A stretch of DNA of 64,000 nt from an uncultured Saprospiraceae bacterium (GTDB lineage: Bacteria > Bacteroidota > Bacteroidia > Chitinophagales > Saprospiraceae), in NCBI GenBank assembly GCA_964508085.1, contig CAZDTI010000001.1:74-64073 (forward strand), written 5' to 3'. The position numbers were made by a program, and so were the translations under genes. This document shows, one piece after another, positions 27,013-57,694 of the stretch; within the stretch, counting starts at the first letter, position 1; each line of letters starts with the position of its first letter. The notes under the pieces are model-generated. The model was not told the DNA's origin, ran no database searches, and saw nothing but the letters and a program-made list of their open reading frames with translations.

Positions 27013-30000
27013 TCATGTTTCAAGCAGGTTTAAAATTTTCTCTTCTACATATTGAGCGAGAGTAGATACCGTAGGAGATTTAAAAACTTGGCTTAAAGGG
27101 ATTTCCATCTCAAATGTTTCGCTGATTCTGGTAGTAATTTGAATAGCCATTAGTGATTCCCCTCCTAGATCAAAGAAGTTGTCATGGATTCCAATTTTAG
27201 AGATGTTAAAAATAGTTTGCCAAATTTCAACTATTAATTCTTCAATTTCTGTTTGAGGAGGAGTATATTCTATTTTCGTTTCAATTGGAAAGGCATGTAA
27301 GGCGCTTAGCGCCTTTCTATTTACTTTTCCGTTTGGAGATAAAGGAAGTTGCTCTAAGTGTCTAAAAAGGGATGGGATCATGTATCTGGGCAATTTTGAA
27401 GCTAAATAAGCTTGTAGCTTCGAAAGAAGTATAACGGAGGGAGAGGTAAAAAAGGCAACTAGGTTCTTAGAACCTAAATTATTGTCTACAGCGAGAACTA
27501 CACAGCTTGTGATGGAAGTGAAGGATACAACGTGCGTTTCAATCTCCCCCAGCTCAATTCGATGCCCGTTTATTTTTACCTGAAAATCAATCCGACCCAA
27601 AAATTCAGTAATCCCTTCTTCATTAATCCTAGCTAAGTCGCCGGTTCTATACATCTTAGTATTTGCCTCAAATGGGTTTGGAATAAATTTTTGATCCGTT
27701 AAATCTGGTTTATTCCAGTAGCCAGCAGCTAAACCAATACCACTTAAATAAAGCTCTCCAATGACTCCTTGAGGAACAGGGATTTGGTGGTCATTTAAGA
27801 TATAGGCATTCATATTATGGATAGGTAGCCCAATAGGAACTGTAGGCGTTTTGATAGTTGGTGTGAACTGATGATAAAGACAGCCTATAGTTGCTTCAGA
27901 AGGGCCGTATTCATCAAACATTAAGAGTTTCCCATTAAAAGCATTATAAACCTCTTGAGCTAAATCTGTATTCAATTCGTCTCCTGTAACAGACATTACT
28001 TTAATTTGGCTTTCCTCAAATGTTTTTCCTTTTAAAAAAATCAAATGAGCGGGAGTCAATTTTACGAAATCAACTTTATTATCTTCTATGACTTCTAATA
28101 TAGATATATCTATTGCCTGATCGACTTCTTGATAGACATGGATAGCTCCCCCCATGATTAAAGGAAGAAAAACAGCATTAGCCGTAATATCGAATCCAAT
28201 TGTTGTAAACAAAGGAATGGCTGGATCTGGACTAGTTATATAAGCCTGCTTTGTCCATTTAATATAACTTGACAATGCTTTATTCGTAATCATAACTCCT
28301 TTTGGATTTCCTGTAGAACCAGAGGTATATATGAGAAAAGCAATAGCGTTTAATGGAATAGACTTCGAGAGGTTTTCAGTAGGATAGTTGCTTAGGGTAG
28401 TTTGGGCTGTATCAATATGTAAAGTATTAATAGGAGACAATTCCATACAATCGGTAAGGCTACTATGGCTAATTAGTAGTTTTGCCTGGCTGTCTTTTAA
28501 TAGGTAGTAAACTCTTTCATTTGGGTAATTACTAGGAATCGGGATGTAAGTAGCTCCGGTTTTTAGAACGGCTAATACACTAATGATGTATTCTGGAGAA
28601 CGTTTTAAACAAATGGCCACTTGTGAACCAAGCCCTATCTCTTTTTCAGATAGATAGTGCGCCAACTGATTGGCCAGTTTGTTTAATTCTTGATAACTTA
28701 TGGATTTTTCTTTGAAAACGATACTAGTCTTCTTTGGGGTCTTTTGAACCTGTGTTTCGATCAGCTCTATTATACTACTTTCCTCTTCAGCAGTATTGTA
28801 TCGGTTCTTATTAAAATCGATAATCGTTTTTTGGAATTCTTGTGGCGTAATTATAGGAATAGCATTAATTGCTGCCTCTTTATCTTCTATGAAAGCATCT
28901 AATAAGGCTAAGAAATGTTTAGGAGCCGCTAACTGTTTTTCTTGGTCAAATACGCCGGTGTTTAAATCAAAGTATAACTGAATATCTCCAGAACGATCAA
29001 AATCATGAACTTGTAAACGCAAGTGGTGTGATGGATCGCAGTGCTCTGGGTGAATCCACTTAGAAGACATTGGAATTCCGTTGAAAGAGGAATAGTCCGC
29101 ATTTATATAATTGAAAAAAACATTAAAGCTACGGCTTAGTTCAGGAGAGGAAGTTCCAGGCTGGGCAAACCTTAAAAAACCATTACTTTCGATTTGGACT
29201 CTTTTTAAAAGAGATAGAAAACTTTCCCCTTGTTCAATTTGTGCAAATAAAGGAAATGTTTCAATGAATAATCCAATGGTCTTTTTGAAATCGTTACTTG
29301 GCCTATTGTGAGCTGGAGAACCCATGACTAAGCTCTCCTGATCACAAATTCTATACAAATACGCAAAAAGTGTAGTTGCAAAAATATTATATAAGGAAAG
29401 GTGTTGAGTCCAAGATCGAATGCCTTTTTCATTGGAGAGTTGACGAAGCTTATCGGATCGTTCTTTCCCTAGTTGTATCGTTATTCGTTTGGAGGCTGTT
29501 GTAGAAGTCTTAAGTTTTTTATTGTAGAGCAGTGGCATTGGAGGGCAGTCTGCCAGTTTATTCTTCCAGTAAGCTTCTGCCTTATTATTTTGAACAGTGT
29601 GCTCAAATAGTATGTAATCTCGGAAAGAGGGTAGAGGAGGTGCGAGGTTTATTTGGTCTTCAATGGAGAGCTTATAAAGTAAGGCTAATTCTTTATAAAT
29701 AACAGAAGTACTCCAGGCATCTGTTGTAAGGTGGTGTTGATTAAAGTACCAGATAAAATCTGTTTCTGATAATCGAATTAGAATACTATCGAATAAACAT
29801 TTTGAAAGGTCAAACATAATTTTTGTTTGATCTTTTACCCAGGATTCGTAGGCAGCCATTGGGGCTACTTCTTTCGAAAAATCTAAAAGAGCAGTTTCAT
29901 ATTCGAGGTTTTCCAATACTTTTTGAATAGGACTTCCATCTCGTACCTCAAATACGGTCCGCAAGGCATCGCTGCGTTCTACTAGTTTTTGAAAAGCATT

Positions 30001-30144
30001 ACGAAAATGATCAACATGAATTTCACCCTGAATATGAAATGTTAAAGCCATGTTATACATAGGGCTACTAACATCCATTTGCTGACCAATCCAAAGAAGT
30101 AACTGGCTTTGTGTTAATTTATGATGTGGATACAAAGTCTTCAT
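27013..30144 (-). CDS. non-ribosomal peptide synthetase, C-A-T module (NRPS-1)
   Basis: C domain: LTQSQLLLWIGQQMDVSSPMYN N-terminus and HHLTTDAWS (nt 29716-29742). A domain: LIYTSGSTGNPKGV, FDEYGPSEA, YRTGDLARI, GRIDFQVKINGHRIELGEIE, PNGKVNRKAL. T domain: FFDLGGESLMAIQ. A 4-bp overlap with the upstream carrier gene suggests translational coupling. Confidence 0.95.
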   Translation of the reverse strand: MKTLYPHHKLTQSQLLLWIGQQMDVSSPMYNMALTFHIQGEIHVDHFRNAFQKLVERSDALRTVFEVRDGSPIQKVLENLEYETALLDFSKEVAPMAAYESWVKDQTKIMFDLSKCLFDSILIRLSETDFIWYFNQHHLTTDAWSTSVIYKELALLYKLSIEDQINLAPPLPSFRDYILFEHTVQNNKAEAYWKNKLADCPPMPLLYNKKLKTSTTASKRITIQLGKERSDKLRQLSNEKGIRSWTQHLSLYNIFATTLFAYLYRICDQESLVMGSPAHNRPSNDFKKTIGLFIETFPLFAQIEQGESFLSLLKRVQIESNGFLRFAQPGTSSPELSRSFNVFFNYINADYSSFNGIPMSSKWIHPEHCDPSHHLRLQVHDFDRSGDIQLYFDLNTGVFDQEKQLAAPKHFLALLDAFIEDKEAAINAIPIITPQEFQKTIIDFNKNRYNTAEEESSIIELIETQVQKTPKKTSIVFKEKSISYQELNKLANQLAHYLSEKEIGLGSQVAICLKRSPEYIISVLAVLKTGATYIPIPSNYPNERVYYLLKDSQAKLLISHSSLTDCMELSPINTLHIDTAQTTLSNYPTENLSKSIPLNAIAFLIYTSGSTGNPKGVMITNKALSSYIKWTKQAYITSPDPAIPLFTTIGFDITANAVFLPLIMGGAIHVYQEVDQAIDISILEVIEDNKVDFVKLTPAHLIFLKGKTFEESQIKVMSVTGDELNTDLAQEVYNAFNGKLLMFDEYGPSEATIGCLYHQFTPTIKTPTVPIGLPIHNMNAYILNDHQIPVPQGVIGELYLSGIGLAAGYWNKPDLTDQKFIPNPFEANTKMYRTGDLARINEEGITEFLGRIDFQVKINGHRIELGEIETHVVSFTSITSCVVLAVDNNLGSKNLVAFFTSPSVILLSKLQAYLASKLPRYMIPSLFRHLEQLPLSPNGKVNRKALSALHAFPIETKIEYTPPQTEIEELIVEIWQTIFNISKIGIHDNFFDLGGESLMAIQITTRISETFEMEIPLSQVFKSPTVSTLAQYVEEKILNLLET

Positions 30145-30386
30145 GCGTTTAATTTACGTCTTTCAAGGTACTCTTGAATATGGCCTATAGTCATAAAATT
30201 TTCTATAGTCATATCTTGTGGGGGAATTAATAGTTCAAACTTATCTTCTATGAAAGTGATTAGTTTCATCATACTCATAGAGTCGACTAAACCACTTCCT
30301 AGTAGGTCATCTTCAGGAGAAAGCGCTATCTCGGTATCACCTCCTAATATTTGTTGTTGTATAAATTCAATAAGAAGATTACTCAT
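30141..30386 (-). CDS. stand-alone acyl/peptidyl carrier protein
   Basis: 81 aa. Phosphopantetheine attachment motif in LGSGLVDSMSMMKLI. Confidence 0.85.
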   Translation of the reverse strand: MSNLLIEFIQQQILGGDTEIALSPEDDLLGSGLVDSMSMMKLITFIEDKFELLIPPQDMTIENFMTIGHIQEYLERRKLNA

Positions 30387-30395
30387 AATTAAAAA

Positions 30396-31958
30396 TTAAT
30401 GGGCTTTTGCTATTAAGGCGTTATGATTTATTTTGCCAGCTGTTGTTCTTGGAATGGTATCGGTGAAAATAATTTTAGAGGGAATATTATACCAGGGTAA
30501 ATGGGTTTTAATATAGTTCTGTAGTGCTTTTTCAGGACTTTCTATCTCTGTTTTAAGTATGACAACAGCTTCAATTAATTTTCCAAAGTCGTCATCCTCC
30601 ACTCCATATGCTGCAACTTCTTTTACAGCTGAATGGCTCGTTATTATGTTTTCAATTTCATCCAATTCAACACGGTATCCTCTGGTTTTTATCTGTCGAT
30701 CTTTACGACCTAGAAATAAGAGTTGGCCCGCCGAATTAAGTTTTACAATGTCCCCGGTCCTATAAAATGTTTTCTCAAAGCCAGCGTCTTTATTTTGAAT
30801 GTAAAAACCTCGCTTAGTCAATTCAGGTTTACCCCAATATCCAGCCATCATGGTAGCTGTACATATTAATAATTCTCCAATGTCCCCTGCATTTACAAGC
30901 TGGTCAGCCTCGTCTACAATCATCATCTCCGTATTTTCCCAAACGACTCCAATAGGAATCGATTCCTCTATATTAGGAAGATCTTTTAAGTGATAGTAAG
31001 TGCATTGATTAACTTCGGCAGGGCCATAAACATTACTAAACGAACTATTAGGCCATGCTTCCATTAATTGACGAAGATGTTTGGTTGGAAAAGGTTCGCC
31101 GCCATATAATACCCACCGAAGGGAGCTTAAATTTCGCTCTTCTAACACCCCTAGTTGAAGTAATTGAGTTAAAGCTAAAGGTACGGAATACCAGACAGTT
31201 AGCTTCTCTTTTTCCATTAAAAGTGATAAGCTGGCGGGCATTTTAGTATAAGCCTCAGGTATGATAATAGTCGTGGCAGCTGCTAATGGAGCTGAAAAAT
31301 AACCGAAGGTAGAAATATCAAAATGGATGGGAGAATGATTTGCGATACGATCATGCTCCGTAATATTGTATAACTCTTTGGAAAGCATTGCATAGCTCAA
31401 TCCACTTCGATGCGTGTGCATAATACCTTTTGGGACTCCGGTAGTACCGGAGGTATAGATAATATAGGCTAAGTCTTTTTCTAAAATAGGACTTGACAAA
31501 AGGGGAGCTGTGTCGGGGTAGTTTTTAACAGCTTTCCAAGAAATTGTTTTTATAGGCAGTTCTTTTTCTACTCCGATAATAGAAAGGAGAGAAAGTGGTT
31601 CAGAGAGCAGATTGGCTAATTTTTTTTTTGATCTTGAGTTGGAGATAAGATGCTTTATTCCAGCTTCTTTTATTAGCTGTTGGTTTCTGGAACTTGGGGC
31701 TTTTACATCAAGGGGAACATAGGCAGCGCCAGCTCTTAAAATACCATGAATGGCTACAGCAGTTTCCAGCGATCTATCGAGGAAAATACCGATTCTATCT
31801 CCCTTCTCAACAGAAAGACCTCGCAATACATTTGCGAGTTGGTTGACTTGCTTATTTAGTGCAAGATAGGTGATTGACTGATCTAAAAATCGAAAAGCTT
31901 CTTTGTTAGGGAATAGCTTGGCGGATTCTTCAATTATATGACTTAAAAGGTAGATCAT
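30396..31958 (-). CDS. stand-alone adenylation (A) domain protein, amino-acid type
   Basis: 520 aa. Motifs IIYTSGTTGVPKGI, FDISTF (retains the alpha-amino-binding Asp), NVYGPAE, YRTGDIVKL, GRKDRQIKTRGYRVELDEIE and TAGKINHNAL. Confidence 0.85.
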   Translation of the reverse strand: MIYLLSHIIEESAKLFPNKEAFRFLDQSITYLALNKQVNQLANVLRGLSVEKGDRIGIFLDRSLETAVAIHGILRAGAAYVPLDVKAPSSRNQQLIKEAGIKHLISNSRSKKKLANLLSEPLSLLSIIGVEKELPIKTISWKAVKNYPDTAPLLSSPILEKDLAYIIYTSGTTGVPKGIMHTHRSGLSYAMLSKELYNITEHDRIANHSPIHFDISTFGYFSAPLAAATTIIIPEAYTKMPASLSLLMEKEKLTVWYSVPLALTQLLQLGVLEERNLSSLRWVLYGGEPFPTKHLRQLMEAWPNSSFSNVYGPAEVNQCTYYHLKDLPNIEESIPIGVVWENTEMMIVDEADQLVNAGDIGELLICTATMMAGYWGKPELTKRGFYIQNKDAGFEKTFYRTGDIVKLNSAGQLLFLGRKDRQIKTRGYRVELDEIENIITSHSAVKEVAAYGVEDDDFGKLIEAVVILKTEIESPEKALQNYIKTHLPWYNIPSKIIFTDTIPRTTAGKINHNALIAKAH

Positions 31959-31991
31959 TTGAGTTGAGTCTGTGAAAATTCTTTACTCTAG

Positions 31992-33143
31992 TTATAGTCC
32001 CAATAGGTTGGCTACTATATTGCGTTGTATATCGGAGGTACCTGCATAGAGTACGCCTCCTACGGCATCCCGTAAATCTCTTTCAATTCCAAGGTCAGTC
32101 AGATAACCATTTCCACCAAAACAGCGTATAGCATCCATACTGGAGTCAAGAAAACTTTCACTCAATTGAAGTTTCAAAAGTGCTGCTTCTAGCATTGCTG
32201 TTTGACCGGTTTGTTTTAGCCAAGCAACTTTGTATAATAACAACCTTGAGGTCTCCAGTCGCAATTTCATCTCTACAACTCTATTAGAAACAGATTGAAA
32301 TTTACCAATTGACTGTCCAAACTGTTTACGCTTGTTCACAAAAGAAACCGTATTTTCTAATTGACGCTCCATTGAACCCAATTGACTAGCAAGTATACTA
32401 CATCGTTCATATTCTAAGGAGTGATTTATCATACTGAAGCCAGCGCCCTCTCCCCCCAATCGATTCTCCTCAGGAACAAAGCAATTGTCAAAATTCAATT
32501 CTCCTTGGGGGATAGTTCTTAAACCCATTTTATCCCGATTAGGGCTTTGGCTAAGGCCATTCATTCCCTTTTCCACCAGAAACGCGGTAATGCCCCATTT
32601 TCCCAGCTTAGGATTTACATTTGCAAAAACAAGCGCTACATCTGCAATTGGAGCAAAAGTGACTAACCGTTTTTGACCATTTAAGATATATCCTTTGTCT
32701 GTTTTCTCGGCGGTCATCTCCATGTTAAAGACATCTGATCCGATGTTGGGCTCGGTTAAAGCATGTGCACCAATCCATTCGCCATTAACCATGGGAGGAA
32801 GGAATTTTTGTTTTTGTTCTTCTGTACCAAATTGAACAATAGGGAGCTGAACCGTCCACATTTGTGCATTCAGCCCAAAAGCTAAGGAGTTATCAAGACA
32901 ACCATAGCCCAATCCCTCTAAGGCGAGTACAGAACTTAATAAATCGACTTCGTCATGGCGTCCACCATATTTAGTGGTAGATGCCATTGCCTGAATTCCG
33001 AATTCCGCACATTTATTCCATAGATCTCTAGCGAAAATATTTTGTTTGTCTCTTGAGACTAAATCGTCATGTAACTCTTTTTTTGCGAAGGCGATAACCT
33101 TCTCTTTATATTGAATTTGTTCTGTTGACCAAGAAAAGTCCAT
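31992..33143 (-). CDS. acyl-CoA dehydrogenase-family flavoenzyme, probably acting on a carrier-bound substrate
   Basis: 383 aa. ACAD fold motifs (GAHALTEPNIGSD, FGQSIGKFQSVSNRVVEMKLRLE, GGNGY). Same operon as the A domain and carrier protein. Confidence 0.8.
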   Translation of the reverse strand: MDFSWSTEQIQYKEKVIAFAKKELHDDLVSRDKQNIFARDLWNKCAEFGIQAMASTTKYGGRHDEVDLLSSVLALEGLGYGCLDNSLAFGLNAQMWTVQLPIVQFGTEEQKQKFLPPMVNGEWIGAHALTEPNIGSDVFNMEMTAEKTDKGYILNGQKRLVTFAPIADVALVFANVNPKLGKWGITAFLVEKGMNGLSQSPNRDKMGLRTIPQGELNFDNCFVPEENRLGGEGAGFSMINHSLEYERCSILASQLGSMERQLENTVSFVNKRKQFGQSIGKFQSVSNRVVEMKLRLETSRLLLYKVAWLKQTGQTAMLEAALLKLQLSESFLDSSMDAIRCFGGNGYLTDLGIERDLRDAVGGVLYAGTSDIQRNIVANLLGL

Positions 33144-33217
33144 GTATTTATTTTTAATCCAGTTAGATCATCAAATTGTAGTTCATCAATTATGATGAAT
33201 CAAAAAGGGTGTTACTG

Positions 33218-35437
33218 CTAGAATTGGTAGGTCACATTCCCTTTTAGAAAAATGGGCGTACCAGGAGTAAAGTGGATTTCCTCTGTTGATTGAACCTCAG
33301 AACGTAGTCTTGAATTTGTGGCAAACTGAGTCTCATTCCATGAGGAATTAAATAGGTTTTCAACAGTAATTCCCAAACTGAGGTTCTTGAAAGAATAATT
33401 CATACTCATATCGGTAATGAAATATCCTTCAGCTACGATACTGTTGTCCTCGTTGGCTGGTCTATCTTTTAGGTATCTGAATTTTAAACTTCCCGAAAAT
33501 CTATCTTTTTTGTATTGAAGTCCACCAGAAGCAGAAAGAGACGGAGCAAGAGGGATAAATTGAGCATTATCAGGTTCATCGATACTTCTTACAAAAGCAT
33601 AGTTTATGTCAGCATTTATGAAGAGAGCGTCAAATACTTGATAACGGATTCCAAGGTCAATACCATTTCGTTCGGTCCGACCACTAGGTTCAACGATTCC
33701 CTCATCTCCAACATAAACAAACTCTTGTTCCAGAAAGAGATACCACAAAGCGGTGTTCAGAATTAGACGTGGAGCTGGCTTCCAGATGAGTCCAAGATCT
33801 GCCCCATAAGCTGCAGGTAATATACTTTCTACATCTTTTTCCAGAACAACTCTGGAATCATTAGAATGAAACCCAATCCCTGTTTTAAAAAAGAATTGAA
33901 TTTTTTTATTGTAATTGTAAATTAAGTTCAATTTAGGACTAACAGCTAATTTTGTTTTTGAGTCAACACTATATAAACTGTCTAGTTTGTTTTGATATTG
34001 AAATTGAAAATAATCTAGTCGGACCGCAGGGCTAAAAAGCCAAGAACCGAAGTCAAATTCCGTATTGACGTAACTGTAATAATTAGATTCATTTACATCA
34101 CCCAACTGTGAATACCTTAGAGTTGTACTTCTATTTAGGGTATGAGCGAGTTCATTATCATTGATATCATCATTTCTCATTCCGATACCAACCTGCACCA
34201 AGGTCGCGGTGTTTCCTATGAAAGAAGAGTGATTCCATTCGCTTTCTAAGCCAAATATATTTCGATTTTCTTTTTGTCTAATTTGGTCTCCATTTATAGG
34301 GTCGTTTAGGAAAAAGGTAAAGTTGGAAAAAAGCTCAAAACCATAGGAACTATAGAAAAGTTTATTTTTAATAAAGGAGTGATTATTAATGGTCTTGCTG
34401 TAGTGCAATGCGAAATTGCTTCGATCTGTATTTCCGCCTTCTGTGTCATCTATTGCTCCAAAGCGAGAGATCAGACCAGAATCTACGGCACGGACAGGAA
34501 TCTGCCCAGAAGCATCCCACTGACTGCTGAAATGGGAAGCGATCAAAGATAATTTATCCAAATTTGGGAGCGTGTAGGTATATTTACCATAAAAACTGAG
34601 GCGATTAAAGTTTTGAGAAGATTCAAAAGGACCATCAGAGGATAAATATTCCGTAGCGATATAAGCGTTATGCGCATCCGTACTAATCAGGTCAAATAAC
34701 CCTACAGCACGTAAAGTGTTGAAACGGCCGGCTTCTAATTTTATAGAAGATTTATCCAATTTTGATTTTGTATTGAAAGCCACATAACCGGCTGTTCCAA
34801 AATTGCCTATATCTGCATAATAGGGCCCTTTACCAAAATCAATCTTTTCAATGGTTTCAGGAATGACAAAGTGCAGGTCAGCATACCCCTGCCCATGGGC
34901 GTGGGAGACCATATTTACAGGCATTCCATCTACCGTTATATTTACGTCAGTCCCATGATCAATATCAAAACCACGAAGGAAAATTTGTTCCGCTTTTCCA
35001 CCACCAGCATGTTGACCTATGAATAGGCCGGGAACTTTCTGGAGAATATCTGTAGAACTATTGACGGGATCTAATTGAATGTCGATATCAGAAAAAAGTG
35101 TTAGGGACTTTATAGATTGTCCAATGACAATTTCATCAAGTTGGAAAATAGATTCATTCAATTTAATTTCTAAAGCAGAGGAGTCTTTGATAATTACTTT
35201 TTTTGCTTCAAAACCAATGTGTACGATTTCTAAAGTATCTCCTATACTGACTCCTTGAAGAGAAAATTGTCCAAGCTCATTTGTATGAGTATGCTGTTTT
35301 GAGTTAAGGTGTGCAACATCAGCACCTGGTATTGATGTTCTGAATTCGTCCATGACCTTACCCTCGACAGTTTGCCCATAAGTCAATTGAAAAAAAGAGA
35401 AAAAGAAAAAGAAAAAGAGGGGAATTGTGCGATTCAT
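33218..35437 (-). CDS. TonB-dependent outer-membrane receptor
   Basis: Signal peptide. CarboxypepD_reg-like N-terminus (GKVMDE...PGADV...TNELGQFSL). Plug motifs (DILQKVPGLFIGQ, IFLRGFD). 22-strand-like barrel ending ...GNVTYQF. Confidence 0.85.
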   Translation of the reverse strand: MNRTIPLFFFFFFSFFQLTYGQTVEGKVMDEFRTSIPGADVAHLNSKQHTHTNELGQFSLQGVSIGDTLEIVHIGFEAKKVIIKDSSALEIKLNESIFQLDEIVIGQSIKSLTLFSDIDIQLDPVNSSTDILQKVPGLFIGQHAGGGKAEQIFLRGFDIDHGTDVNITVDGMPVNMVSHAHGQGYADLHFVIPETIEKIDFGKGPYYADIGNFGTAGYVAFNTKSKLDKSSIKLEAGRFNTLRAVGLFDLISTDAHNAYIATEYLSSDGPFESSQNFNRLSFYGKYTYTLPNLDKLSLIASHFSSQWDASGQIPVRAVDSGLISRFGAIDDTEGGNTDRSNFALHYSKTINNHSFIKNKLFYSSYGFELFSNFTFFLNDPINGDQIRQKENRNIFGLESEWNHSSFIGNTATLVQVGIGMRNDDINDNELAHTLNRSTTLRYSQLGDVNESNYYSYVNTEFDFGSWLFSPAVRLDYFQFQYQNKLDSLYSVDSKTKLAVSPKLNLIYNYNKKIQFFFKTGIGFHSNDSRVVLEKDVESILPAAYGADLGLIWKPAPRLILNTALWYLFLEQEFVYVGDEGIVEPSGRTERNGIDLGIRYQVFDALFINADINYAFVRSIDEPDNAQFIPLAPSLSASGGLQYKKDRFSGSLKFRYLKDRPANEDNSIVAEGYFITDMSMNYSFKNLSLGITVENLFNSSWNETQFATNSRLRSEVQSTEEIHFTPGTPIFLKGNVTYQF

Positions 35438-35754
35438 AATAGTTAGGTGAAGTTTTCGATTTTTAAAATGGTTGAGTTGTGGTTTGTTTAATTAAAACAG
35501 CTACTAATTCACTACAAAGTAGACATAAATTAAGGCGAATTAATTAAAAACCAAATTAACATTTTATCACAGAATTGTTAGTGTTTGAGCAAAATTTTTG
35601 AGATAATGTAGTCTATGCGATACCCTGAGGTGATCTTGATTTTTTGTAACTGAAGAATACTGGCTTTAAACTCAGGTAGTCTTATTTTTTTTATAGATTT
35701 GGATTTTTTCTATTCTTGAATTCATCGTCTTTTTGGATTTTATTTTGAAAAATT

Positions 35755-37140: not shown

Positions 37141-37161
37141 TACGGAGTCCTTAAGAAATCT

Positions 37162-41341: not shown

Positions 41342-41593
41342 TATATTGTATAAGTGAAAGGAATTACAATTGTATTGTTATTTATTTTTTTTTCAAACTG
41401 TTTGGAAATAAATCTAACTATTGGTGATAAATATAATACATTTGTCAACTATAGATTAACTAATTTAGCGGTTTGCTCTTATTATAAATTCCTTTTTTAA
41501 AAAAATGTTTAAGATACCATCGGAAAACTACAATTAATATTAACAAAACAAGAAAAGGAGAAACTATTATGGCTGCTAGTTGCTATAATTATA

Positions 41594-43294: not shown

Positions 43295-43313
43295 AACAAA
43301 CAAACAATACTTA

Positions 43314-44597: not shown

Positions 44598-44653
44598 TTT
44601 GGCTAAAATACTTTAAGTGATGTCCACGTACATAAAATTAGAATTAATATAAA

Positions 44654-47600
44654 ATGTCAAAATTTGAGAAGAGCAATGACTTGCTTAAACGATGGCGCAG
44701 TCGAAATAAAAATACTGGGGTAGAGAGGAAGGAAAAAGGGATAAACATTTCTTCAAAACCAACGGAATCACCAGCCCTACTATCCTCTGGGCAACAGCGA
44801 CTGTGGTTTTTACAAGAACTATTCTCAGATAATCCTTTTTACCACTATGCCGACGTCTATACCTTAAAAGGAAAACTCAATGAAGCTATTTTAATTAAAA
44901 GCTTTGAGTTTGTTGTACAAAGACATTCGATCCTTAGAACTACCTTTCATTTTGAAGGAGAAAGCTGTACACAAAGAATCCACGAGAAAGCGGTTTTTGA
45001 TTATGGCTTCATCGATTTAAGCCAAGATTCAGAGGGCTCGAAAGAACAAAAATCAGATGCCCTCCTTAGAGAAAAAGCACAGGTTTTCTTCGACCTGACT
45101 GAGGGGCCACTCCTCCGAGTAACTCTGGTTAAAATGACGGAACTCAAACACAAGTTGGCAATCACCATGCACCATATTGTTACCGATAAATGGTCAATGA
45201 AAATTCTACGAGAAGAACTTGCTTTCGCTTACAATGAATTTTCTGATGGAAGAAAACCATCTCTGAATCCTCTTCCTTTTCAATACGAAGACTACGCGTA
45301 CTGGCAACAAGGTAAAACCATTGACCCGCTACAAATAGCTTATTGGAGGGATAAGTTAAAGGACTGTAGTCCCAACATTAAATTGTTTCATCAAAACCAA
45401 CCTAGAAAAGAAACAACTTACAAAGGAGCTTTCCTCAGCCAAAAATTCACACCGGACTTATCGGAAAAACTGAAAAATTTAAGCGCTAAAACGAATACAA
45501 CTTTATTCGTTTTACTGCTCACTATTTATAAGCTGTTACTTCACCGCTATTCCGGACAAGAGGACATCTTAGTTGGTACGCCATTTACAAATAGAAATCA
45601 AAGTGTCCTTGAAAAGCTAATTGGTTTCTTCAACGATACCTTAGTTCTTCGATCTGACTTCAGTGGAGAGCTTACCTTTACTGAATTATTAAAAGAGATT
45701 CGGCAAACTGTATTAGATGCTTTTACCAACAAAGATGTACCCTTCGAAACAATAGTCGATACTATAAAACCTGAGCGATACCTCAGCTCAAATCCATTAT
45801 TTCAAGTCATGTTCTTATTCCATAAAGTCCCAGAAAATCCCAAAATGGGACAGGGAATAGAAATCGAATACGAACCCTTTGATATTGGCATTTGTAAATT
45901 TGATCTGACCTTATATATTGCTGAAGCTAAAGATCATATTTCAGCGACTATCGAGTACTCTTTGGACTTGTTTGATGAACCCACTATCCAAAGAATGCAA
46001 GGTCATTTTCTACATTTATTGGAACAAGTCATTGAAAACCCAAATCAGAAAATATCAGAACTTCAACTGATTACAGCAGCGGAAAGAAGCCAGCAATTAA
46101 AAAATTGGAACAGTACGCGAATCGAGAAATCTGAGGTCGTAGCCATTCATCATTTCTTTGAAAAGTATGCAAAAGCAACACCTGAGGCTACAGCATTAAA
46201 ATTCTTAGATCAATCGTATTCTTACAAAGAGCTTGACGAAAAGGCCTCTTATATTGCAAAAGGATTGGTGGCTGCCGGTGTTGGCTCTAACATTCCTGTT
46301 GGGATATGTGCAGAAAGATCAATGGAAATGATTGTAGGTGTACTGGCCATATTAAAAGCTGGAGGAGTTTATTTACCAATTGACCCCGAATATCCCTCCG
46401 AAAGGATCACCTTTATGCTGGAGCAAGCAGAAGTGCCTTTTGTACTAACGCAAGTAGACCAAACAGAGAATTTTCTAGACAACAATACAGAAATTCTTAC
46501 ATTCCAAGAATTGTATGACGCGGTTTATGACGATAGTACTCTAGTAATTACTGAAGAAAATAAACCTTCAGATCTTGCATACATTATATACACTTCTGGA
46601 AGTGTTGGCAAACCAAAAGCAGTCGCTGTTAGCCATGAGAATATTGTGCATTCTACCAGCGCACGGTTTTCATATTACGATGATCAACCCAAGTCTTTTT
46701 TACTGTTATCTTCTTTTGCTTTTGATAGTTCGATGGTAGGTATTTTTTGGACACTCTGCTCTGGTGGAACTTTAGTTATTGCTGAGAAGAAAGTAGAACA
46801 GAATATGCAAGACTTGAGTAGCCTGTTTTCAAAGTATCAAACAACTCATACTTTATTACTACCTTCTCTATACGCATTGTTACTGGAGCAAGGTGTGAAA
46901 AAAGAGCTAGCAAGTTTAAACACAGTTATTGTAGCTGGAGAAGAATGCACAAGTCGGTTGTGCAGCCATCATTTTGAGCGCCTTCCAGCGGTTAAACTCT
47001 ACAATGAATATGGGCCAACAGAGGCAAGTGTCTGGTGTACTGCGCATCGAATAACTAAGGAAGATGTAGAGAGCCCCGTTCCTATAGGTCGCCCAATTCC
47101 TAATATGGAAATTTTTATCCTGGACAAAAATATGTCCTTAGTTCCCATTGGAGTTGTAGGAGAACTTTATGTAGGAGGCGTTGGTGTAACAAAAGGATAT
47201 TTAAATAGGCCAGATTTGACAGAAGAGCGCTTTTTGAACCATCCTTTTAATAATGGAAGTAAGAATAAGGTATATAAAACAGGAGATTTAGCAGTCTATC
47301 GGCCTGATGGTCTTATTGACTTTTTAGGCCGTGTAGACCATCAGGTAAAAATTAGAGGACATCGAATTGAGTTGGCAGAAATTCAAAAAACAATGCTTTT
47401 ACACCCTGCGATAGATGATGTTGTTGTAATGTTGTTAAAGCAAAAACAGGATCAAGGATATACCACAAAACGAATAGGAGCATATTATACTATAAATAAA
47501 GATTTGGAATCTAAGGAATTGAAAGGTTTCATTAAATCTCGTCTACCGGCTTACATGTTACCTGCGGCTTTTTTTCAACTTCCAAAGTTTCCGAAACTTC

Positions 47601-49342
47601 CGAATGGAAAATTAGACGTGAAAGCCCTTAATCAATTTCAAGAAAATGAAATAACAAGTGCAGATAGCTTTGTGGAAGCAAGAACTGATTTGGAACGAGA
47701 CCTAACAAATATTTGGGAAGAAGTCTTGAATGTAAAACCAATAGGGATTTATGATAATTTCTTTGAAATAGGAGGAGACTCTATTCTTAGTATTCAGATT
47801 AACGGTAGAGCGAGAAAGAAAGGGATTCATATATCCCCTAATCTATTATTTGAAAATCAAACCATTGCATCACTTTCAAGTGCAATAACACTTAATGAAG
47901 AAAATCTTCTTCAAGAAAAAAAGGAAAAAGAATACCTCAGTGCTGTACCTGTTCTGACTCCTATACAACATTGGTATTTTGAAACTCACCGTAATGCACC
48001 AGCACATTGGAACTTGGGATTACGATTTCAACCTTCAACCAGTATTTCGACAGACTTATTAAAAATTGCGATCCAGAAACTGATAGAACGACACGATGCT
48101 TTACGCATGGCTTTTAACGTCGATGAGAATGGTATTTGGAAACCAATGCTGCTAGATGTTCAAGGAGAAAATGTCTTTAGTATAATAGAAATATCTGTAA
48201 AGGGAGAAAAAGACGCCAACAATATAATTACAAGTCATATTCAAAAACAGAGTGAATCCTTTGCTCTTTCAGAAGGCAATTTATTTCAATGCGTTTATTT
48301 CAAATGTGAAAATGAATTAAAAGATCAAATATTACTTTTAGCACATCATCTTGTGTTGGATAATGTTTCTTGGAGTATAATTACACAGGATTTAGAAACA
48401 TTACTCGACCAACTATCAAAGAAAGAAAAGCCCAAATTAACTCCTTCAACTATTCCCTATAGTTTATGGAGCAATAAACTGGTAAGCATTGCGAATTCGG
48501 GTAAGTTAACAGTGGATTATAATTATTGGAAAAAGACAGCGGCCTGCTCGACGGATGAATTCCCTACTGATTTTGAAAAGTCAATGCCAGTCCTTGAAAA
48601 AAGTATTAATTATAGTACTTTTCGACTAGAAGCTGATTATACAGAACTATTGTTACAAAAGGTGCCTAAGCATAAAAGTATCCGTATTAATGAATTGTTA
48701 CTTTGTGGAATGATGATGGCTCTGAAAGATTGGAATAACATCAAGAGACTTCGTGTTGAAATGGAGGGTCATGGTAGAGAGTCACTTTTTGATGATTCTA
48801 CCTTTTTTAGCTCTGTAGGCTGGTTTACCGCTATATTTCCCGTCTTGCTGGAGTTAAACGAATCACTTGAAGTAGAGGATAATCTTAAACAGATTAAAGA
48901 GCAAGTTCGGAATGTTCCTAACAAGGGTATCACATATGGAATGCTTCGGTACCTAAGTGAATCTGAAGAAGTTCGAATGGATTTGTCTTGTACGACATCT
49001 GTTCTATTTAATTATTTAGGAGTGGAAAATGAATCAGGAAAGCGTATTTTAGGGAAGGGAAAAACAGTAGTAGAGGAGGCTCGCTCTCCATCAGGCGAAA
49101 GATACCATTGTCTTGAACTGAACATAAAAGTGCAAGATATGATTTTGGAAGTTAGTTGTGCTTACAGTAAAAGTCTATATCATCAAAATACAATTGATTC
49201 TTTCATGGATGAATATCAAAAGAATTTAATCAAATTGATTGACCATTGCATCTCTTCGGAAAAACAATCCTACACGCCTTCTGATTTTCCAGAGGCTGAT
49301 ATAAGCCAAGGTGATCTTGACGCTTTACTTGGTCAGTTATAA
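44654..49342 (+). CDS. non-ribosomal peptide synthetase, C-A-T-E module (NRPS-2)
   Basis: LCL-type C domain (LSSGQQRLWFLQEL; HHIVTDKWS at nt 45170). A domain (IIYTSGSVGKPKAV, AFDSS, NEYGPTEA, YKTGDLAVY, GRVDHQVKIRGHRIELAEIQ, PNGKLDVKAL). T domain (FFEIGGDSILSIQ). E domain (PIQHWYF, HHLVLDNVSW, EGHGRE, FNYLG). Confidence 0.95.
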   Translation: MSKFEKSNDLLKRWRSRNKNTGVERKEKGINISSKPTESPALLSSGQQRLWFLQELFSDNPFYHYADVYTLKGKLNEAILIKSFEFVVQRHSILRTTFHFEGESCTQRIHEKAVFDYGFIDLSQDSEGSKEQKSDALLREKAQVFFDLTEGPLLRVTLVKMTELKHKLAITMHHIVTDKWSMKILREELAFAYNEFSDGRKPSLNPLPFQYEDYAYWQQGKTIDPLQIAYWRDKLKDCSPNIKLFHQNQPRKETTYKGAFLSQKFTPDLSEKLKNLSAKTNTTLFVLLLTIYKLLLHRYSGQEDILVGTPFTNRNQSVLEKLIGFFNDTLVLRSDFSGELTFTELLKEIRQTVLDAFTNKDVPFETIVDTIKPERYLSSNPLFQVMFLFHKVPENPKMGQGIEIEYEPFDIGICKFDLTLYIAEAKDHISATIEYSLDLFDEPTIQRMQGHFLHLLEQVIENPNQKISELQLITAAERSQQLKNWNSTRIEKSEVVAIHHFFEKYAKATPEATALKFLDQSYSYKELDEKASYIAKGLVAAGVGSNIPVGICAERSMEMIVGVLAILKAGGVYLPIDPEYPSERITFMLEQAEVPFVLTQVDQTENFLDNNTEILTFQELYDAVYDDSTLVITEENKPSDLAYIIYTSGSVGKPKAVAVSHENIVHSTSARFSYYDDQPKSFLLLSSFAFDSSMVGIFWTLCSGGTLVIAEKKVEQNMQDLSSLFSKYQTTHTLLLPSLYALLLEQGVKKELASLNTVIVAGEECTSRLCSHHFERLPAVKLYNEYGPTEASVWCTAHRITKEDVESPVPIGRPIPNMEIFILDKNMSLVPIGVVGELYVGGVGVTKGYLNRPDLTEERFLNHPFNNGSKNKVYKTGDLAVYRPDGLIDFLGRVDHQVKIRGHRIELAEIQKTMLLHPAIDDVVVMLLKQKQDQGYTTKRIGAYYTINKDLESKELKGFIKSRLPAYMLPAAFFQLPKFPKLPNGKLDVKALNQFQENEITSADSFVEARTDLERDLTNIWEEVLNVKPIGIYDNFFEIGGDSILSIQINGRARKKGIHISPNLLFENQTIASLSSAITLNEENLLQEKKEKEYLSAVPVLTPIQHWYFETHRNAPAHWNLGLRFQPSTSISTDLLKIAIQKLIERHDALRMAFNVDENGIWKPMLLDVQGENVFSIIEISVKGEKDANNIITSHIQKQSESFALSEGNLFQCVYFKCENELKDQILLLAHHLVLDNVSWSIITQDLETLLDQLSKKEKPKLTPSTIPYSLWSNKLVSIANSGKLTVDYNYWKKTAACSTDEFPTDFEKSMPVLEKSINYSTFRLEADYTELLLQKVPKHKSIRINELLLCGMMMALKDWNNIKRLRVEMEGHGRESLFDDSTFFSSVGWFTAIFPVLLELNESLEVEDNLKQIKEQVRNVPNKGITYGMLRYLSESEEVRMDLSCTTSVLFNYLGVENESGKRILGKGKTVVEEARSPSGERYHCLELNIKVQDMILEVSCAYSKSLYHQNTIDSFMDEYQKNLIKLIDHCISSEKQSYTPSDFPEADISQGDLDALLGQL

Positions 49343-49347
49343 ATTAA

Positions 49348-51762
49348 ATGCAGATTATGAAAAGTGCAAAGATAGAAGCCATACTACCATTAAATTTTTT
49401 ACAGCGAGCTTTACTCTTCCACAGTTTATTGGGACAAAAAGATCAGGGGTTTCTCCATGTTACTTCCACATTCAAAGGAGTATTGAATAAAGATTTTTTT
49501 CAAAAGTCTTTGAATGAGATAGTTAGACGACATGAGGTTTTACGTACTTCCATTCACTGGAAAGAAATTAAGAGTCCACTTCAGGTGGTACACCCTTCCG
49601 GAACGATCAAATGTATTTTCGAAGATTGGACAGATTTGGATAGTAAGGTACAAAATCAAAAGCTAATTGAGTTCAGGGAAGCTGACGAGAAGAAGGGCTT
49701 GGATTTATCAAAAAAACCAGTAACCAGAATCGTTATTTTTCAATTGAAATCAGAAGAGTATCTAATGTTGTGGACCTGTCACCACATCTTATTAGATGGC
49801 TGGTCTGCTTCTAATATTATTAAAGACCTATTTGCATATTATGACGGATGGAGTAGGGGGGAAGCAGTAAAACTTAATCCAATACCAAAATATAAAGATT
49901 ATCTGAAAGAATTGGATGGTTTTGATTTTAGTGCAAGCCAATCTTTTTGGTCTGAAACCATGGCAGATTTTAATTCGCCCACATTAATTAACAATGAGAC
50001 TACAAATGTCTTAGATAGGAAACCTAATCTAGAAAAGGAATCTGTAATTCTTGATGCCCCTAATTTTCAAATACTAAAAAAACTCGCCCGCCAGAATCGA
50101 GTCACATTGAATTCTTTAATTCAAGGACTTTGGGCTTTATTACTCGCCAAACTCGCTCATCAACATGATGTCGTTTTTGGAACCACTGTTTCTATTCGAT
50201 CAGATAAATTGAATAATGCTGAAGAGATGGCGGGTCTTTTTGTAAATATGATTCCTGTGCGTGTCCAAGTAAAAGAGGATATACATTTATTTGAGTGGTT
50301 AAAGACAATTCAACAACAACAGCTTCAGATTCGAAATCACCATTACGTCTCTCTCGATCAAATCATTTCTTGGATGAATTGGCCTGGCTTCAAACCACTT
50401 TTTGATACCCTTCTTGTCGTCGAAAACTTCCCATGGAAAAATATTCAAAGTGGTGGGATAGAAGTAATAGACTTTGAAGGGGGAATTACCTCCACTTACC
50501 CTTTAACCATTATGGTTAAACCACTCGAGGAACTTGAATTTACACTACTTTACGATACTAATTTAGTTGGAAAGGAATCTATAGATTGGATTTTGAAGAA
50601 CATAATGGTTCAATTTACAGAAATCATAAGAAATGGAGATTTAAAAGTTTCGTCTTTATTAGAGCAAATATCTCCTCCAACCTTCACAAATAAAGAAAAA
50701 GAGCCAAAGGTTAGTATGGAAATAAATTCATTAAATTTCCGATCTGATTATTTGCCTCCGGAGAATAAACTGGAATTAGAATTAACTAAAATATGGGAAG
50801 AAATATTTGGCTTTTCCCCAATAGGAGTTAATGATAACTTCTTCGAAATAGGGGGTAAATCAATACTAGCAGTCCAATTATTTGCACAAATTGAGCGTAA
50901 ATTAGGTTATAATCTTTCTCCAATTACTTTATTACAACATACTAGTATAAAGGCTATTAGTACAATTATAAAGAGTGATAGTGCAGTGCTTCATTGGAAG
51001 TCATTGGTGCCTATCAATATTCAAGGAGAAAAGCCGCCACTCTTCTGCCTTCATGCAAAGGGCGGTCACGTATTTTTTTACAATGCTCTAGCGAAACATT
51101 TAGGAGACGATCAGCCCGTTTATGCTTTGCAACCAAAGGGATTAGATGGAGTGGAACCATTATATGAGAGTATCGAAGAAATGGCCACACATTATCTAAC
51201 CGAAATTAAAACAATTCAGCCTAATGGTCCTTATGCTTTGTTGGCTACTTGCTTTAGCAATGCAGTGGGGCTTGAAATGGCGCAACAGCTTCATAACCAA
51301 GGAGAAAAAGTATCTATTTTGGCCATGGTCGATGCTTCTCCTGGAATATTACAAGAACACATCCCTGATCCCTTACCTAAGTGGAAAAGGGTAGTACAAG
51401 TCTTAAAAAAAGATGGTCTGGAATCGACTGGTAAGAAGGTAATTCAAAAGCTGGAAAATTCTTTTAAAAAGAAGAGTGATGAGAAAAAATCGAAACAAGA
51501 ATTGGCACTTATAAAAGTGCAAGAAAAATTAGATTTCATTTTTAGAAAATATAGAAGAAAGGCATATGAAGGGAAAGTGACTTTAATTAGGAGTAGTGAG
51601 TTTGAGGAAAGGTCCGATAAAGTTTTTCATGTTGAAGAGTGGGAAGAAATCTCTACGCAGCCTTTAGAAATCATAGTTGTTCCAGGGCACCATCAAAGCC
51701 TATTTTTAGAACCAGAAGTCATAGGGCTAGCTAAAGGTTTAGCTCAATGCCTACCTAAATAA
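49348..51762 (+). CDS. non-ribosomal peptide synthetase termination module C-T-TE with no A domain (NRPS-3)
   Basis: C domain (LPLNFLQRALLFH; CHHILLDGWS). Only ~30 aa separate it from the T domain (FFEIGGKSILAVQ). TE domain (LFCLHAKGGHVFFY, GPYALLATCFSNAVGLEMA, MVDASP, VPGHHQSLF). Confidence 0.9.
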   Translation: MQIMKSAKIEAILPLNFLQRALLFHSLLGQKDQGFLHVTSTFKGVLNKDFFQKSLNEIVRRHEVLRTSIHWKEIKSPLQVVHPSGTIKCIFEDWTDLDSKVQNQKLIEFREADEKKGLDLSKKPVTRIVIFQLKSEEYLMLWTCHHILLDGWSASNIIKDLFAYYDGWSRGEAVKLNPIPKYKDYLKELDGFDFSASQSFWSETMADFNSPTLINNETTNVLDRKPNLEKESVILDAPNFQILKKLARQNRVTLNSLIQGLWALLLAKLAHQHDVVFGTTVSIRSDKLNNAEEMAGLFVNMIPVRVQVKEDIHLFEWLKTIQQQQLQIRNHHYVSLDQIISWMNWPGFKPLFDTLLVVENFPWKNIQSGGIEVIDFEGGITSTYPLTIMVKPLEELEFTLLYDTNLVGKESIDWILKNIMVQFTEIIRNGDLKVSSLLEQISPPTFTNKEKEPKVSMEINSLNFRSDYLPPENKLELELTKIWEEIFGFSPIGVNDNFFEIGGKSILAVQLFAQIERKLGYNLSPITLLQHTSIKAISTIIKSDSAVLHWKSLVPINIQGEKPPLFCLHAKGGHVFFYNALAKHLGDDQPVYALQPKGLDGVEPLYESIEEMATHYLTEIKTIQPNGPYALLATCFSNAVGLEMAQQLHNQGEKVSILAMVDASPGILQEHIPDPLPKWKRVVQVLKKDGLESTGKKVIQKLENSFKKKSDEKKSKQELALIKVQEKLDFIFRKYRRKAYEGKVTLIRSSEFEERSDKVFHVEEWEEISTQPLEIIVVPGHHQSLFLEPEVIGLAKGLAQCLPK

Positions 51763-57693: not shown

Positions 57694-57694
57694 C

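Follow-up and report, generated by a model that had tools for sequence, protein, structure and literature searches.

The stretch of DNA analysed here, referred to as the window, comprises 64,000 nucleotides of contig CAZDTI010000001.1 (positions 74 to 64,073, forward strand) in the assembly GCA_964508085.1 of an uncultured Saprospiraceae bacterium. Between positions 27013 and 51762 it encodes a cluster of nonribosomal peptide synthetases (NRPSs) that is a candidate pathway for a Cu/Ni-binding peptide. The 13 genes, spread over about 25 kb, form two tightly packed divergent operons and a small middle block, and the list of open reading frames (ORFs) agrees with the gene order and coordinates given in an initial annotation of the window. 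The minus-strand operon runs from a TonB-dependent receptor (TBDR) through a flavoenzyme of the acyl-CoA dehydrogenase (ACAD) fold, a stand-alone adenylation (A) enzyme and a free carrier protein to NRPS-1. The intergenic gaps from the receptor to the carrier protein are 74, 33 and 9 bp, and the stop of the carrier protein overlaps the start of NRPS-1 by 4 bp. The plus-strand operon encodes a fused ABC exporter, a HupE-like permease, NRPS-2 and NRPS-3. The middle block consists of a glycosyltransferase, a sulfotransferase, a protein with a sorting domain of the type IX secretion system (T9SS) and an enzyme of the ornithine/lysine cyclodeaminase family. Domains were assigned by Pfam and NCBIfam profile searches of the ORF translations.

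Related loci were collected with the ACAD in a scan of one genome per species, which gave 178 relatives; the best 80 loci were analysed, and the 52 of them that measure at least 15 kb are called long loci below. The best relatives of the ACAD itself are encoded in metagenome-assembled genomes (MAGs) of Saprospiraceae with at most 75% identity. The closest relative of the whole cluster that was found lies on a 122-kb metagenome contig (L081, counted apart from the 80 loci), where all genes of the cluster recur in unchanged order at 52-73% identity, including those of the glycosyltransferase, the sulfotransferase and the T9SS protein.

The NRPS proteins and their predicted substrates

NRPS-1 (27013-30144, minus strand) consists of a condensation (C) domain at residues 9-438 with the motif HHLTTDAWS at 137, an A domain (463-940) and a thiolation (T) domain (970-1033). 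NRPS-2 (44654-49342, plus strand) comprises C (residues 41-481), A (502-986) and T (1016-1078, GGDS1043) domains followed by an epimerisation (E) domain at about 1095-1558. NRPS-3 (49348-51762, plus strand) has a C domain (11-437, HHILLDGWS at 145), a T domain (479-539, GGKS505) and a thioesterase (TE) domain (563-785). The E-values of these domains in Pfam and NCBIfam range from 1e-12 to 1e-163, and the HHxxxD motifs of the C domains, the core motifs of the A domains, the serines of the T domains and the terminal TE are those of modular type I NRPSs. The domain assignments made in the initial annotation are borne out in full by these profiles and motifs.

Specificity codes of the A domains were read by alignment to GrsA residues 233-526, a fragment verified to be exact against PDB 1AMU. 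The alignment reproduced exactly the three codes that had been derived by hand, DINKSTEIGK for NRPS-1, DSVLIAEVWK for NRPS-2 and DIFYLGVQCK for the stand-alone A enzyme, and Lys517 aligns in all three A domains. The code of NRPS-2 is identical at 9 of 10 positions to the published His code DSALIAEVWK (PMC12283262), which is found without change in four orthologues. The C-terminal C-like domain of this protein is an E domain according to TIGR01720 (141 bits, cutoff 74) and carries the motifs PIQHWYF, HHLVLDNVSW, EGHGRE, VGWFT and FNYLG. The second module is therefore predicted to activate and add L-His and to epimerise it to D-His. While the substrates had earlier been left unassigned, His can thus be proposed for NRPS-2. 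For NRPS-1 the assignment is weaker: its code shares K278, E322 and G331 with the Asn code DLTKIGEVGK and 5 of 10 positions overall, so that the domain may be called Asn-like at most.

The condensation domains fit the position of the epimerase. The C domain of NRPS-2 (C2) resembles those that accept an L-configured donor (LCL type), with 210-246 bits to Txo1/2 and TycC6 as against 107-140 bits to domains that accept a D-configured donor (DCL type). The C domain of NRPS-3 (C3) is DCL-like, with 198-246 bits to McyB, BacC, SrfA-C and TycB1 and the next match at 107 bits or less. The previously suggested order of an LCL domain, an epimerase and a DCL domain is supported by these scores, and with it a D-configured second extension residue. 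C1, the C domain of NRPS-1, is divergent. None of its matches in the PDB exceeds 92 bits and EntF is not among them, and the NCBIfam models MxcG and EntF align over the full length of NRPS-1 far under their cutoffs (452 of 2300 and 370 of 2400 bits, respectively). The view that C1 belongs to the DhbF/EntF type that accepts aryl or acyl starters is thus not supported by the PDB comparison and finds weak support in NCBIfam.

NRPS-3 is without an AMP-binding match, and the one A domain per elongation module expected of a collinear assembly line is thus not found. The assembly line had been described as having three modules, of which two are complete and the third is not. It follows that either the T domain of NRPS-3 (T3) receives its residue in trans or the module makes no addition. 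T3 shares 48% identity with the T domain of NRPS-2 (T2) and is quite unlike the free carrier protein, and one guess is that the A domain of NRPS-2 (A2) loads T3 in trans with a second His. Trans-loading has a precedent in the synthesis of yersiniabactin, and a terminal C-T-TE lacking its own A domain is present in SyrE, which is loaded via SyrB1/SyrC. The A-less C-T-TE arrangement is also found in six relatives (L051, L080, L048, L063, L073 and L081).

The nucleophile of the TE is a cysteine (ATC635FS; window 51250-51252) with Asp662 and His782 aligned. This cysteine form (xTCFS) is found in the window and in 12 other Bacteroidota, that is, in all Bacteroidota members, and the TE of the cyanobacterial orthologue L048 keeps GISFGG. 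In Arenibacter amylolyticus (L029) an E-like domain follows the TE within one ORF (A2-T2-TE-E), which is an unusual order.

In the relatives the module that follows C1-A1-T1 carries the His code in all 42 loci where it can be read, as it does in the three loci of the cyanobacterial/planctomycete layout, giving 45 of 45 readable loci. The first module varies, being mostly Asn-coded (Asn or cyanoalanine), sometimes Ser-coded and sometimes of the DINK type of the window. Termination varies likewise, with T-TE directly after His, T-E followed by C-T-TE as in the window, or T-C. As the His module always stands one module after the cap and the first module is variable, the minimal invariant product would be cap-Xaa-His.

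Most relatives have an insertion of about 345 residues in the A domain of the first module (Asn code DLTKIGEVC/G), with an SGGKDS PP-loop and a Pfam QueC match (L005, 12973-17157, and about 40 other loci). This matches the layout of AlbIV of the albicidin pathway, in which an inserted ATP-pyrophosphatase domain accompanies the conversion of Asn to β-cyanoalanine. NRPS-1 of the window differs from AlbIV in having no insertion and a divergent code.

In 21 relatives (L005, 1-5408; L001, L007, L008, L010 and 16 others) the His module is split over three adjacent ORFs with overlapping starts and stops. They encode C-A(core), a 262-residue protein with a methyltransferase-like GxGxG motif and no Pfam match, and A(sub)-T-E. 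The arrangement looks like an interrupted A domain that is encoded as separate genes.

The starter-loading cassette

Upstream of NRPS-1, on the same strand, lie the genes of the ACAD (31992-33143, three ACAD domains in Pfam and NCBIfam), the stand-alone or type II A enzyme (30396-31958, TIGR01733 355 bits) and the free carrier protein of 81 residues (30141-30386, PP-binding 25.7 bits, with the serine in VDS36MS). A cassette of such an A enzyme, a small carrier protein and an ACAD is the type II cassette of pyoluteorin, prodigiosin and anatoxin-a biosynthesis.

The best PDB match of the ACAD is AnaB (4IRN, 431 bits, 49% identity), followed by PigA (5ZW0) at 299 bits, and generic butyryl-CoA dehydrogenases score at most 280 bits. 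Its best NCBIfam models are those of PigA (399 bits, equivalog cutoff 500) and RedW (339 bits, cutoff 650). By these comparisons AnaB and PigA are much nearer relatives of the enzyme than generic ACADs are. We propose that it is of the prolyl-carrier-protein dehydrogenase type and oxidises the ring of a carrier-bound imino acid. AnaB halts at the cyclic imine, and PigA, PltE and RedW proceed to the pyrrole; by its sequence the cassette of the window may do either.

For the pocket region of the stand-alone A enzyme the top PDB matches are PltF (6O6E, 84 bits) and 7THN (67 bits), both L-proline--[prolyl-carrier-protein] ligases and the two of known structure; the next match scores 52 bits. Its code, read from a multiple alignment of about 70 orthologues, is identical to that of PltF (DLLYLALVCK) at 5 of 10 positions and conservatively replaced at 4. 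The pocket has Gly301, Val322 and Gln330 at the positions of Ala, Leu and Val in the PltF type. The enzyme is thus likely to charge the small carrier protein with a cyclic imino acid, either pipecolate or proline. The identities given earlier to the three proteins stand; the aryl or acyl starter that had been expected of them does not, as the combination of an AnaB/PigA-type ACAD, a PltF-like A enzyme and a carrier protein is of the prolyl-carrier type.

In PltF/PltL/PltE, PigI/PigG/PigA and AnaC/AnaD/AnaB the A enzyme, carrier protein and ACAD are likewise encoded side by side. Those cassettes feed polyketide synthases or pyrrole chemistry, whereas that of the window feeds an NRPS condensation domain. 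It differs further in having a gene similar to lysine cyclodeaminases attached, suggesting a six-membered ring.

Cyclodeaminase and the identity of the cap

The cyclodeaminase gene (40235-41341, minus strand; OCD_Mu_crystall 202 bits) had been annotated as a homologue of ornithine cyclodeaminase (OCD). The family is correct, and the nearest solved relatives are lysine cyclodeaminases (LCDs; 5GZI and 5YU0, 277 bits) rather than the OCD of P. putida (139 bits). The enzyme is proposed to belong to the loading pathway as the supplier of the imino acid, most likely L-pipecolate made from L-lysine. Cluster-encoded cyclodeaminases are also a feature of the rapamycin, FK506 and pristinamycin pathways (RapL, FkbL and PipA), and these LCDs are the closest solved relatives. 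Rapamycin-type pathways use unoxidised pipecolate through an in-line A domain, in contrast to the free carrier protein and oxidation proposed here. The structural paper on LCD gives no residue rule that separates lysine from ornithine cyclodeaminases.

The distribution of the gene among the orthologues follows a residue in the pocket of the stand-alone A enzyme. Residue 301 is Gly in every locus that has the cyclodeaminase, usually together with Val322, and in 16 loci that lack it the residue is Ala or Ser; PltF and 7THN, which are proline-specific, carry Ala. One clade among these 16 loci has a code that has moved closer to the canonical one for proline (DPQFLSIQC). Gly301 without a cyclodeaminase is found only on contigs that end on that side and in one Pirellulaceae locus. 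The sister loci L036 and L057 are syntenic, with ACADs and permeases 84-87% identical. The cyclodeaminase of L057 (8843-9913) is represented in L036 by a remnant of about 360 bp (9543-9904), and the stand-alone A enzyme of L036 is only 65% identical to that of L057 and has changed from Gly to Ala at residue 301. Such retuning of the A enzyme on loss of the cyclodeaminase makes sense if the latter supplies a substrate that is not a primary metabolite, and L-pipecolate is for this reason a somewhat better candidate than L-proline for the precursor of the cap in the window.

The alternative, in which the enzyme acts as an OCD that boosts proline, the A enzyme loads L-Pro and the flavoenzyme yields pyrrole-2-carboxyl-S-carrier or a dehydroprolyl group, would lead to pyrrolyl- or dehydroprolyl-Xaa-D-His, for which a metal role could still hold. 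It agrees with the nearest structures of both the A enzyme and the ACAD, which act on proline, and with the name L-proline ligase given by the Joint Genome Institute (JGI) to a 58%-identical homologue. The best NCBIfam model of the cyclodeaminase is likewise OCD (203 bits, cutoff 350), and the members without cyclodeaminase show the PltF-like Ala301 or the canonical proline-like code. Yet the proline-like codes occur exactly where the cyclodeaminase is missing, the window combines the roomier Gly301/Val322 pocket with a cyclodeaminase whose similarity to LCD is double that to OCD, and the change in the A domain of L036 would have been needless had the lost enzyme made a primary metabolite. We therefore regard a proline cap in the window as less likely than one from pipecolate, although it is the best of the alternatives. 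The cassette is nearest to AnaB and PltF and the cyclodeaminase, which co-varies with the pocket residue, is nearest to LCDs; the cap is accordingly predicted to be an oxidised cyclic imino acid, probably derived from pipecolate and otherwise from proline.

The HupE-like permease

The permease gene (43314-44597, plus strand; PF13795 147 bits) encodes a two-domain protein of the inner membrane with a signal peptide, a periplasmic β-sandwich and a HupE/UreJ-2 channel with the motif H196-x5-D202-H203. His25 is the predicted first residue of the mature protein, with the cleavage site judged by eye, and is conserved in all of 58 locus-derived and 52 database homologues. In the same set H196, D202, H203, H267, E287, H320 and E350 are invariant or at least 97% conserved. 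Some homologues match DUF6702 instead.

An AlphaFold2 model of the protein (pLDDT 87) has as its top fold match in the PDB 9GCE, the Cu-bound Ang-1 domain of a HupE/UreJ-2 protein (E-value 3.6e-5, TMt 0.60), and as the next matches the Zn-binding periplasmic proteins ZrgA and PA4063. With an HX5DH channel and His1 on a β-sandwich domain the modelled protein has the features of the anglerase-HupE/UreJ-2 type. It shares with the anglerase RbAng-1a (9GCE) the order of signal peptide, His1, β-sandwich and PF13795, at about 11% identity to Ang-1.

According to the available excerpt of the anglerase study (PMC12537917), His1 domains are appended to PF13795 permeases, and RbAng-1a binds Cu2+ (Kd 74 nM) and Ni2+ (Kd 220 nM) through a mono-histidine brace and is of a domain type destabilised by Fe in vitro. 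The authors propose there that the domain "fishes" metal ions into the permease. By analogy the permease of the window may be a Cu/Ni binder. In the same excerpt Ang-1 is described mainly from Pseudomonadota, and no NRPS is among the most frequent neighbour genes listed (PMC12537917). The co-location of the permease with NRPS genes identified here spans Bacteroidota, Acidobacteriota, Cyanobacteria and Planctomycetota. As the most constant NRPS partner in the family (51 of the 52 long loci), the HupE-like gene does not appear to be incidental and points to Cu/Ni.

Receptor, exporter, tailoring enzymes and secreted protein

The TBDR (33218-35437, first gene of the minus-strand operon) is made up of CarboxypepD_reg, Plug (Pfam, 58 bits) and barrel regions, and its nearest NCBIfam subfamilies are siderophore and haem/transferrin receptors, all under cutoff. 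Orthologues with 50-64% identity are encoded in 47 of the 80 loci. We propose that it imports the metal-loaded peptide. The ABC exporter (41594-43294, plus strand; ABC_membrane and ABC_tran) fuses the transmembrane and nucleotide-binding domains, has an orthologue of 66% identity in L081 and is the proposed exporter of the peptide. Export with possible re-import, as envisaged in the initial annotation, is supported.

The glycosyltransferase (35755-37140, plus strand) is a GT1-family protein of the MGT/UDPGT-like kind (EryCIII-like_C 41 bits; TIGR01426 89 bits, under cutoff) with an orthologue of 57% identity in L081, and is a probable tailoring enzyme. The sulfotransferase (37162-37860, minus strand; Sulfotransfer_4 78 bits), encoded last in the operon of cyclodeaminase, T9SS protein and sulfotransferase, is syntenic only in L081 and L069 (66-67% identity) and possibly has a tailoring role as well. 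The synteny of these two genes in the relatives L081 and L069 lends support to the glycosylation and sulfation that had been considered possible. The T9SS-secreted protein (37921-40107, minus strand) has 728 residues with fn3-like regions and a C-terminal sorting domain (Por_Secre_tail 47 bits). It matches Peptidase_C25 just under the cutoff (22.8 bits), and the PDB gave no informative sequence match. L081 encodes a syntenic counterpart with 66% identity, and none of the other 80 loci has one. Since the synteny with L081 runs on into polysaccharide genes, this is weak evidence for assigning the protein to the pathway, to which it may be unrelated.

The gene cluster family in other genomes

About 80 species carry the same cassette, and the family is large in marine Bacteroidota. 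The cassette is conserved in Saprospiraceae, Flavobacteriaceae, Cyclobacteriaceae/Cytophagales and Chitinophagales, and also occurs in Acidobacteriota, in Cyanobacteria (Leptolyngbya PCC 7375 and others), in one member of the Pirellulaceae and in one gammaproteobacterial MAG. The stand-alone A enzyme is encoded in all 52 long loci, the carrier protein in 51 (72 of the 80 loci) and the C1 module in 50. The cyclodeaminase follows with 40 long loci, the TBDR with 33, the glycosyltransferase beside the NRPS with 16 (20 of the 80 loci) and the ABC exporter with 15 (23 of the 80).

Two protein families found beside the genes of relatives are absent from the window, and neither has a Pfam match. A His-rich protein of about 155 residues (HDAHTHDNPKADHDH...) is encoded next to the TBDR in 20 Flavobacteriaceae loci (L026, 11205-11672) and, like the TBDR itself, fits a link with metal, and a multi-pass membrane protein of about 542 residues lies between the cyclodeaminase and the ACAD in 20 loci (L009, 8309-9937).

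The initial annotation had reported neither an MbtH-like gene nor a phosphopantetheinyl transferase (PPTase) from the window. The MbtH motif is indeed absent from all frames of the window and no PPTase was identified among its scanned ORFs; relatives have a PPTase gene adjoining the cluster, which in L081 follows NRPS-3. An Rfam scan of the whole window gave no riboswitch or other RNA. As a candidate for an operator shared by both divergent promoter regions the 10-bp palindrome TACAATTGTA at 41365 was considered and rejected: its near-matches are not enriched (15 against 8 ± 3 expected), and none lies in the other promoter region.

Neighbouring genes

A plasmid-type replication module is found 7 kb from the cluster (16411-20414). 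It consists of a ParA-like ATPase (16411-17061, minus strand), a Rep_3 initiator (18483-19835, minus strand) and, just upstream of the Rep_3 gene, an iteron of 20-21 bp (GATGTAnnnCTACG...) repeated about 15 times at 20063-20414. The contig has a length of about 101 kb. Because of this module the NRPS cluster may be plasmid-borne; a megablast search of the PLSDB plasmids with the 16-40 kb region of the window gave no match.

A complete gene for the cobalamin-dependent methionine synthase MetH (23247-26945) is convergent with NRPS-1, whose 3' end lies 67 bp away. The position of this cobalt-cofactor enzyme beside a putative metal-uptake locus is probably coincidental.

A polysaccharide locus lies directly downstream of NRPS-3 (51824-63485) with genes for UDP-glucose dehydrogenase, a GT2 glycosyltransferase, a NusG/UpxY-like antiterminator (55178-55738), a Wza-like exporter and Wzz. 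The NusG and UDP-glucose dehydrogenase context also follows the cluster in L081. The locus includes the genes CysC/CysD/CysN (56204-58948) for the synthesis of 3'-phosphoadenosine 5'-phosphosulfate (PAPS), which could also feed the sulfotransferase of the cluster.

Further upstream (2361-12284) are encoded a VWA-domain protein, a T9SS adhesin (5216-8680) with SprB repeats and CHU_C and, at 10650-12284, a CotH kinase that carries a T9SS tail. These genes are consistent with a gliding host of the Bacteroidota. The T9SS genes place the host in this phylum, and the relatives of the ACAD suggest that it is probably Saprospiraceae-like.

Predicted product and proposed role

Xaa-Xaa-His peptides bind Cu(II) and Ni(II) in square-planar geometry, which is the rule of the amino-terminal Cu(II)- and Ni(II)-binding (ATCUN) site. 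In the scheme proposed here the cyclodeaminase would make the cyclic imino acid, with L-pipecolate from lysine favoured and proline from ornithine as the alternative. The stand-alone A enzyme would load it onto the 81-residue carrier protein, and the AnaB/PigA-type flavoenzyme would oxidise its ring, yielding either a cyclic imine or an aromatic N-heterocycle. From the free carrier the cap would pass to the C domain of NRPS-1, which would join it to an Asn-like residue, after which NRPS-2 would add L-His and epimerise it to D-His. The DCL domain of NRPS-3 would hand the chain to the A-less carrier, by guess charged by A2 with a second His, and the Cys-type TE would release the product, which the glycosyltransferase and the sulfotransferase may decorate. 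The ABC pump would then export the peptide and the TonB receptor re-import the metal complex, with the metal handed over to the permease in the periplasm.

The core of the predicted product is (N-heterocycle-2-carbonyl)-Xaa-D-His, in which the ring nitrogen, two amide nitrogens and the imidazole nitrogen could serve as donors in the manner of an ATCUN site. At the level of prediction, the 45 readable loci all have one module between the cap and His, and no N-acylating domain stands upstream of the cassette. The ATCUN donor set would be reproduced by the combination of an N-heterocycle with an unblocked ring nitrogen as the first residue, a second position open to variation and an invariant His in third place. 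The predicted product shares with the ATCUN sites of peptides and albumins His3, a variable second residue, an unacylated N-terminal ring nitrogen and the donor set of a 5-5-6 chelate. It differs from them in being nonribosomal, in having an oxidised cyclic imino acid as the first residue and D-His as the third, and in the possibility of a further residue or decoration.

Since the exporter, the TonB receptor and a permease of Cu/Ni type adjoin the genes for this ATCUN-like product, an exported and re-imported Cu/Ni metallophore is the most economical reading of the cluster, and with modest confidence we consider the whole picture a probable one. The ring size, its oxidation state, the substrate of the first residue, the loader of T3, the binding of metal and the metal itself are parts of it that we infer from sequence.

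Several observations weigh against this reading. The flavoenzyme falls short of the curated cutoffs of PigA and RedW, we know of no pipecolyl-carrier dehydrogenase, and DINKSTEIGK fits no known code well. The extra C-T-TE may bring a fourth residue, or cyclisation by the Cys-type TE, either of which could alter the metal site. The permease resembles Ang-1 in fold to a modest degree (TMt 0.60 at 11% identity), a metal-responsive operator or riboswitch was looked for in the window and not found, and the siderophore and haem types nearest to the TBDR mean that the metal may be iron. Lysine cyclodeaminase also takes ornithine and then gives proline (LCD structural paper). The co-variation of Gly301 with the cyclodeaminase represents only about three independent events, and the preference for pipecolate is for this reason provisional.

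An ordinary Fe(III) siderophore, imported by the TonB receptor and accompanied by a HupE-like protein acting as a generic permease, would suit the combination of NRPS, ABC exporter and TonB receptor, which is the standard siderophore layout, as well as the subfamilies nearest to the receptor. The yersiniabactin locus (HMWP1/2) likewise has NRPSs, exporter and TBDR together. The window differs from loci of the yersiniabactin and SyrE type in having no heterocyclisation domains, salicylate or shuttle acyltransferase, and its nitrogen donors would come from His and the ring. No genes for hydroxamate, catecholate, α-hydroxy-acid or thiazoline/oxazoline groups are present in the window or the scanned relatives, and the invariant building blocks are the nitrogen donors imidazole and ring N, which favour Cu, Ni, Co or Zn. 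As the constant partner permease, moreover, has a domain type that in the excerpt of PMC12537917 binds Cu and Ni and is destabilised by Fe, a siderophore of this kind is improbable. Just as improbable is a peptide whose bioactivity, as an antibiotic, protease inhibitor or signal, has nothing to do with metal uptake, with transporters for export or immunity and the permease there by coincidence. Short peptides that are capped, contain D-amino acids and bear sugars or sulfate are common among bioactives, the glycosyltransferase is of the macrolide-glycosyltransferase family that often serves self-protection and the Cys-type TE hints at unusual release chemistry, but the presence of the permease in nearly every long locus across four phyla and of the TBDR in more than half of the 80 loci is beyond coincidence, and a chelator accounts better than a target-binding pharmacophore for a strict His at position 3 next to a variable position 2.

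Implications of the proposed Cu/Ni metallophore

Each part of the proposed Cu/Ni metallophore pathway has a precedent, namely the type II cassette, pipecolate supplied by LCD, the logic of E and DCL domains, A-less terminal modules and anglerase permeases. No counterpart was found in the literature for their combination, especially for an Xaa-Xaa-His design tied to a HupE/UreJ-2 permease, nor was a published study of this Bacteroidota gene cluster family; a 2022 survey of biosynthetic gene clusters in Bacteroidetes makes no mention of it. Tentatively, and with more doubt than confidence, we suggest that the family represents an undescribed class of nonribosomal ATCUN-like metallophores that hand Cu(II)/Ni(II) to the His1 domain of an anglerase. 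It would then provide the first small-molecule partner of an anglerase and the first oxidised cap derived from pipecolate on a free carrier protein.

Few metallophores dedicated to Cu or Ni are known (methanobactins, diisonitriles and members of the opine family), and the acquisition of Cu and Ni by marine Bacteroidota is largely uncharted. The family, which has cultured carriers in Hyunsoonleella jejuensis DSM 21035, Dokdonia pacifica DSM 25597, Aurantibacter crassamenti, Agaribacillus aureus and Leptolyngbya PCC 7375 and of which several cultured strains carry close versions, offers testable rules of A-domain specificity in the loss of the cyclodeaminase with retuning and the Asn-to-nitrile insertion, as well as the Cys-type thioesterases. 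If the proposal is true, Cu/Ni uptake systems could be recognised across dozens of marine genera by a simple genetic signature made up of the imino-acid cassette, one variable module, the His module and the anglerase-HupE permease. A physiological ligand would then be at hand for the anglerase permeases, and the ATCUN design would be found in nature as a product of NRPS.

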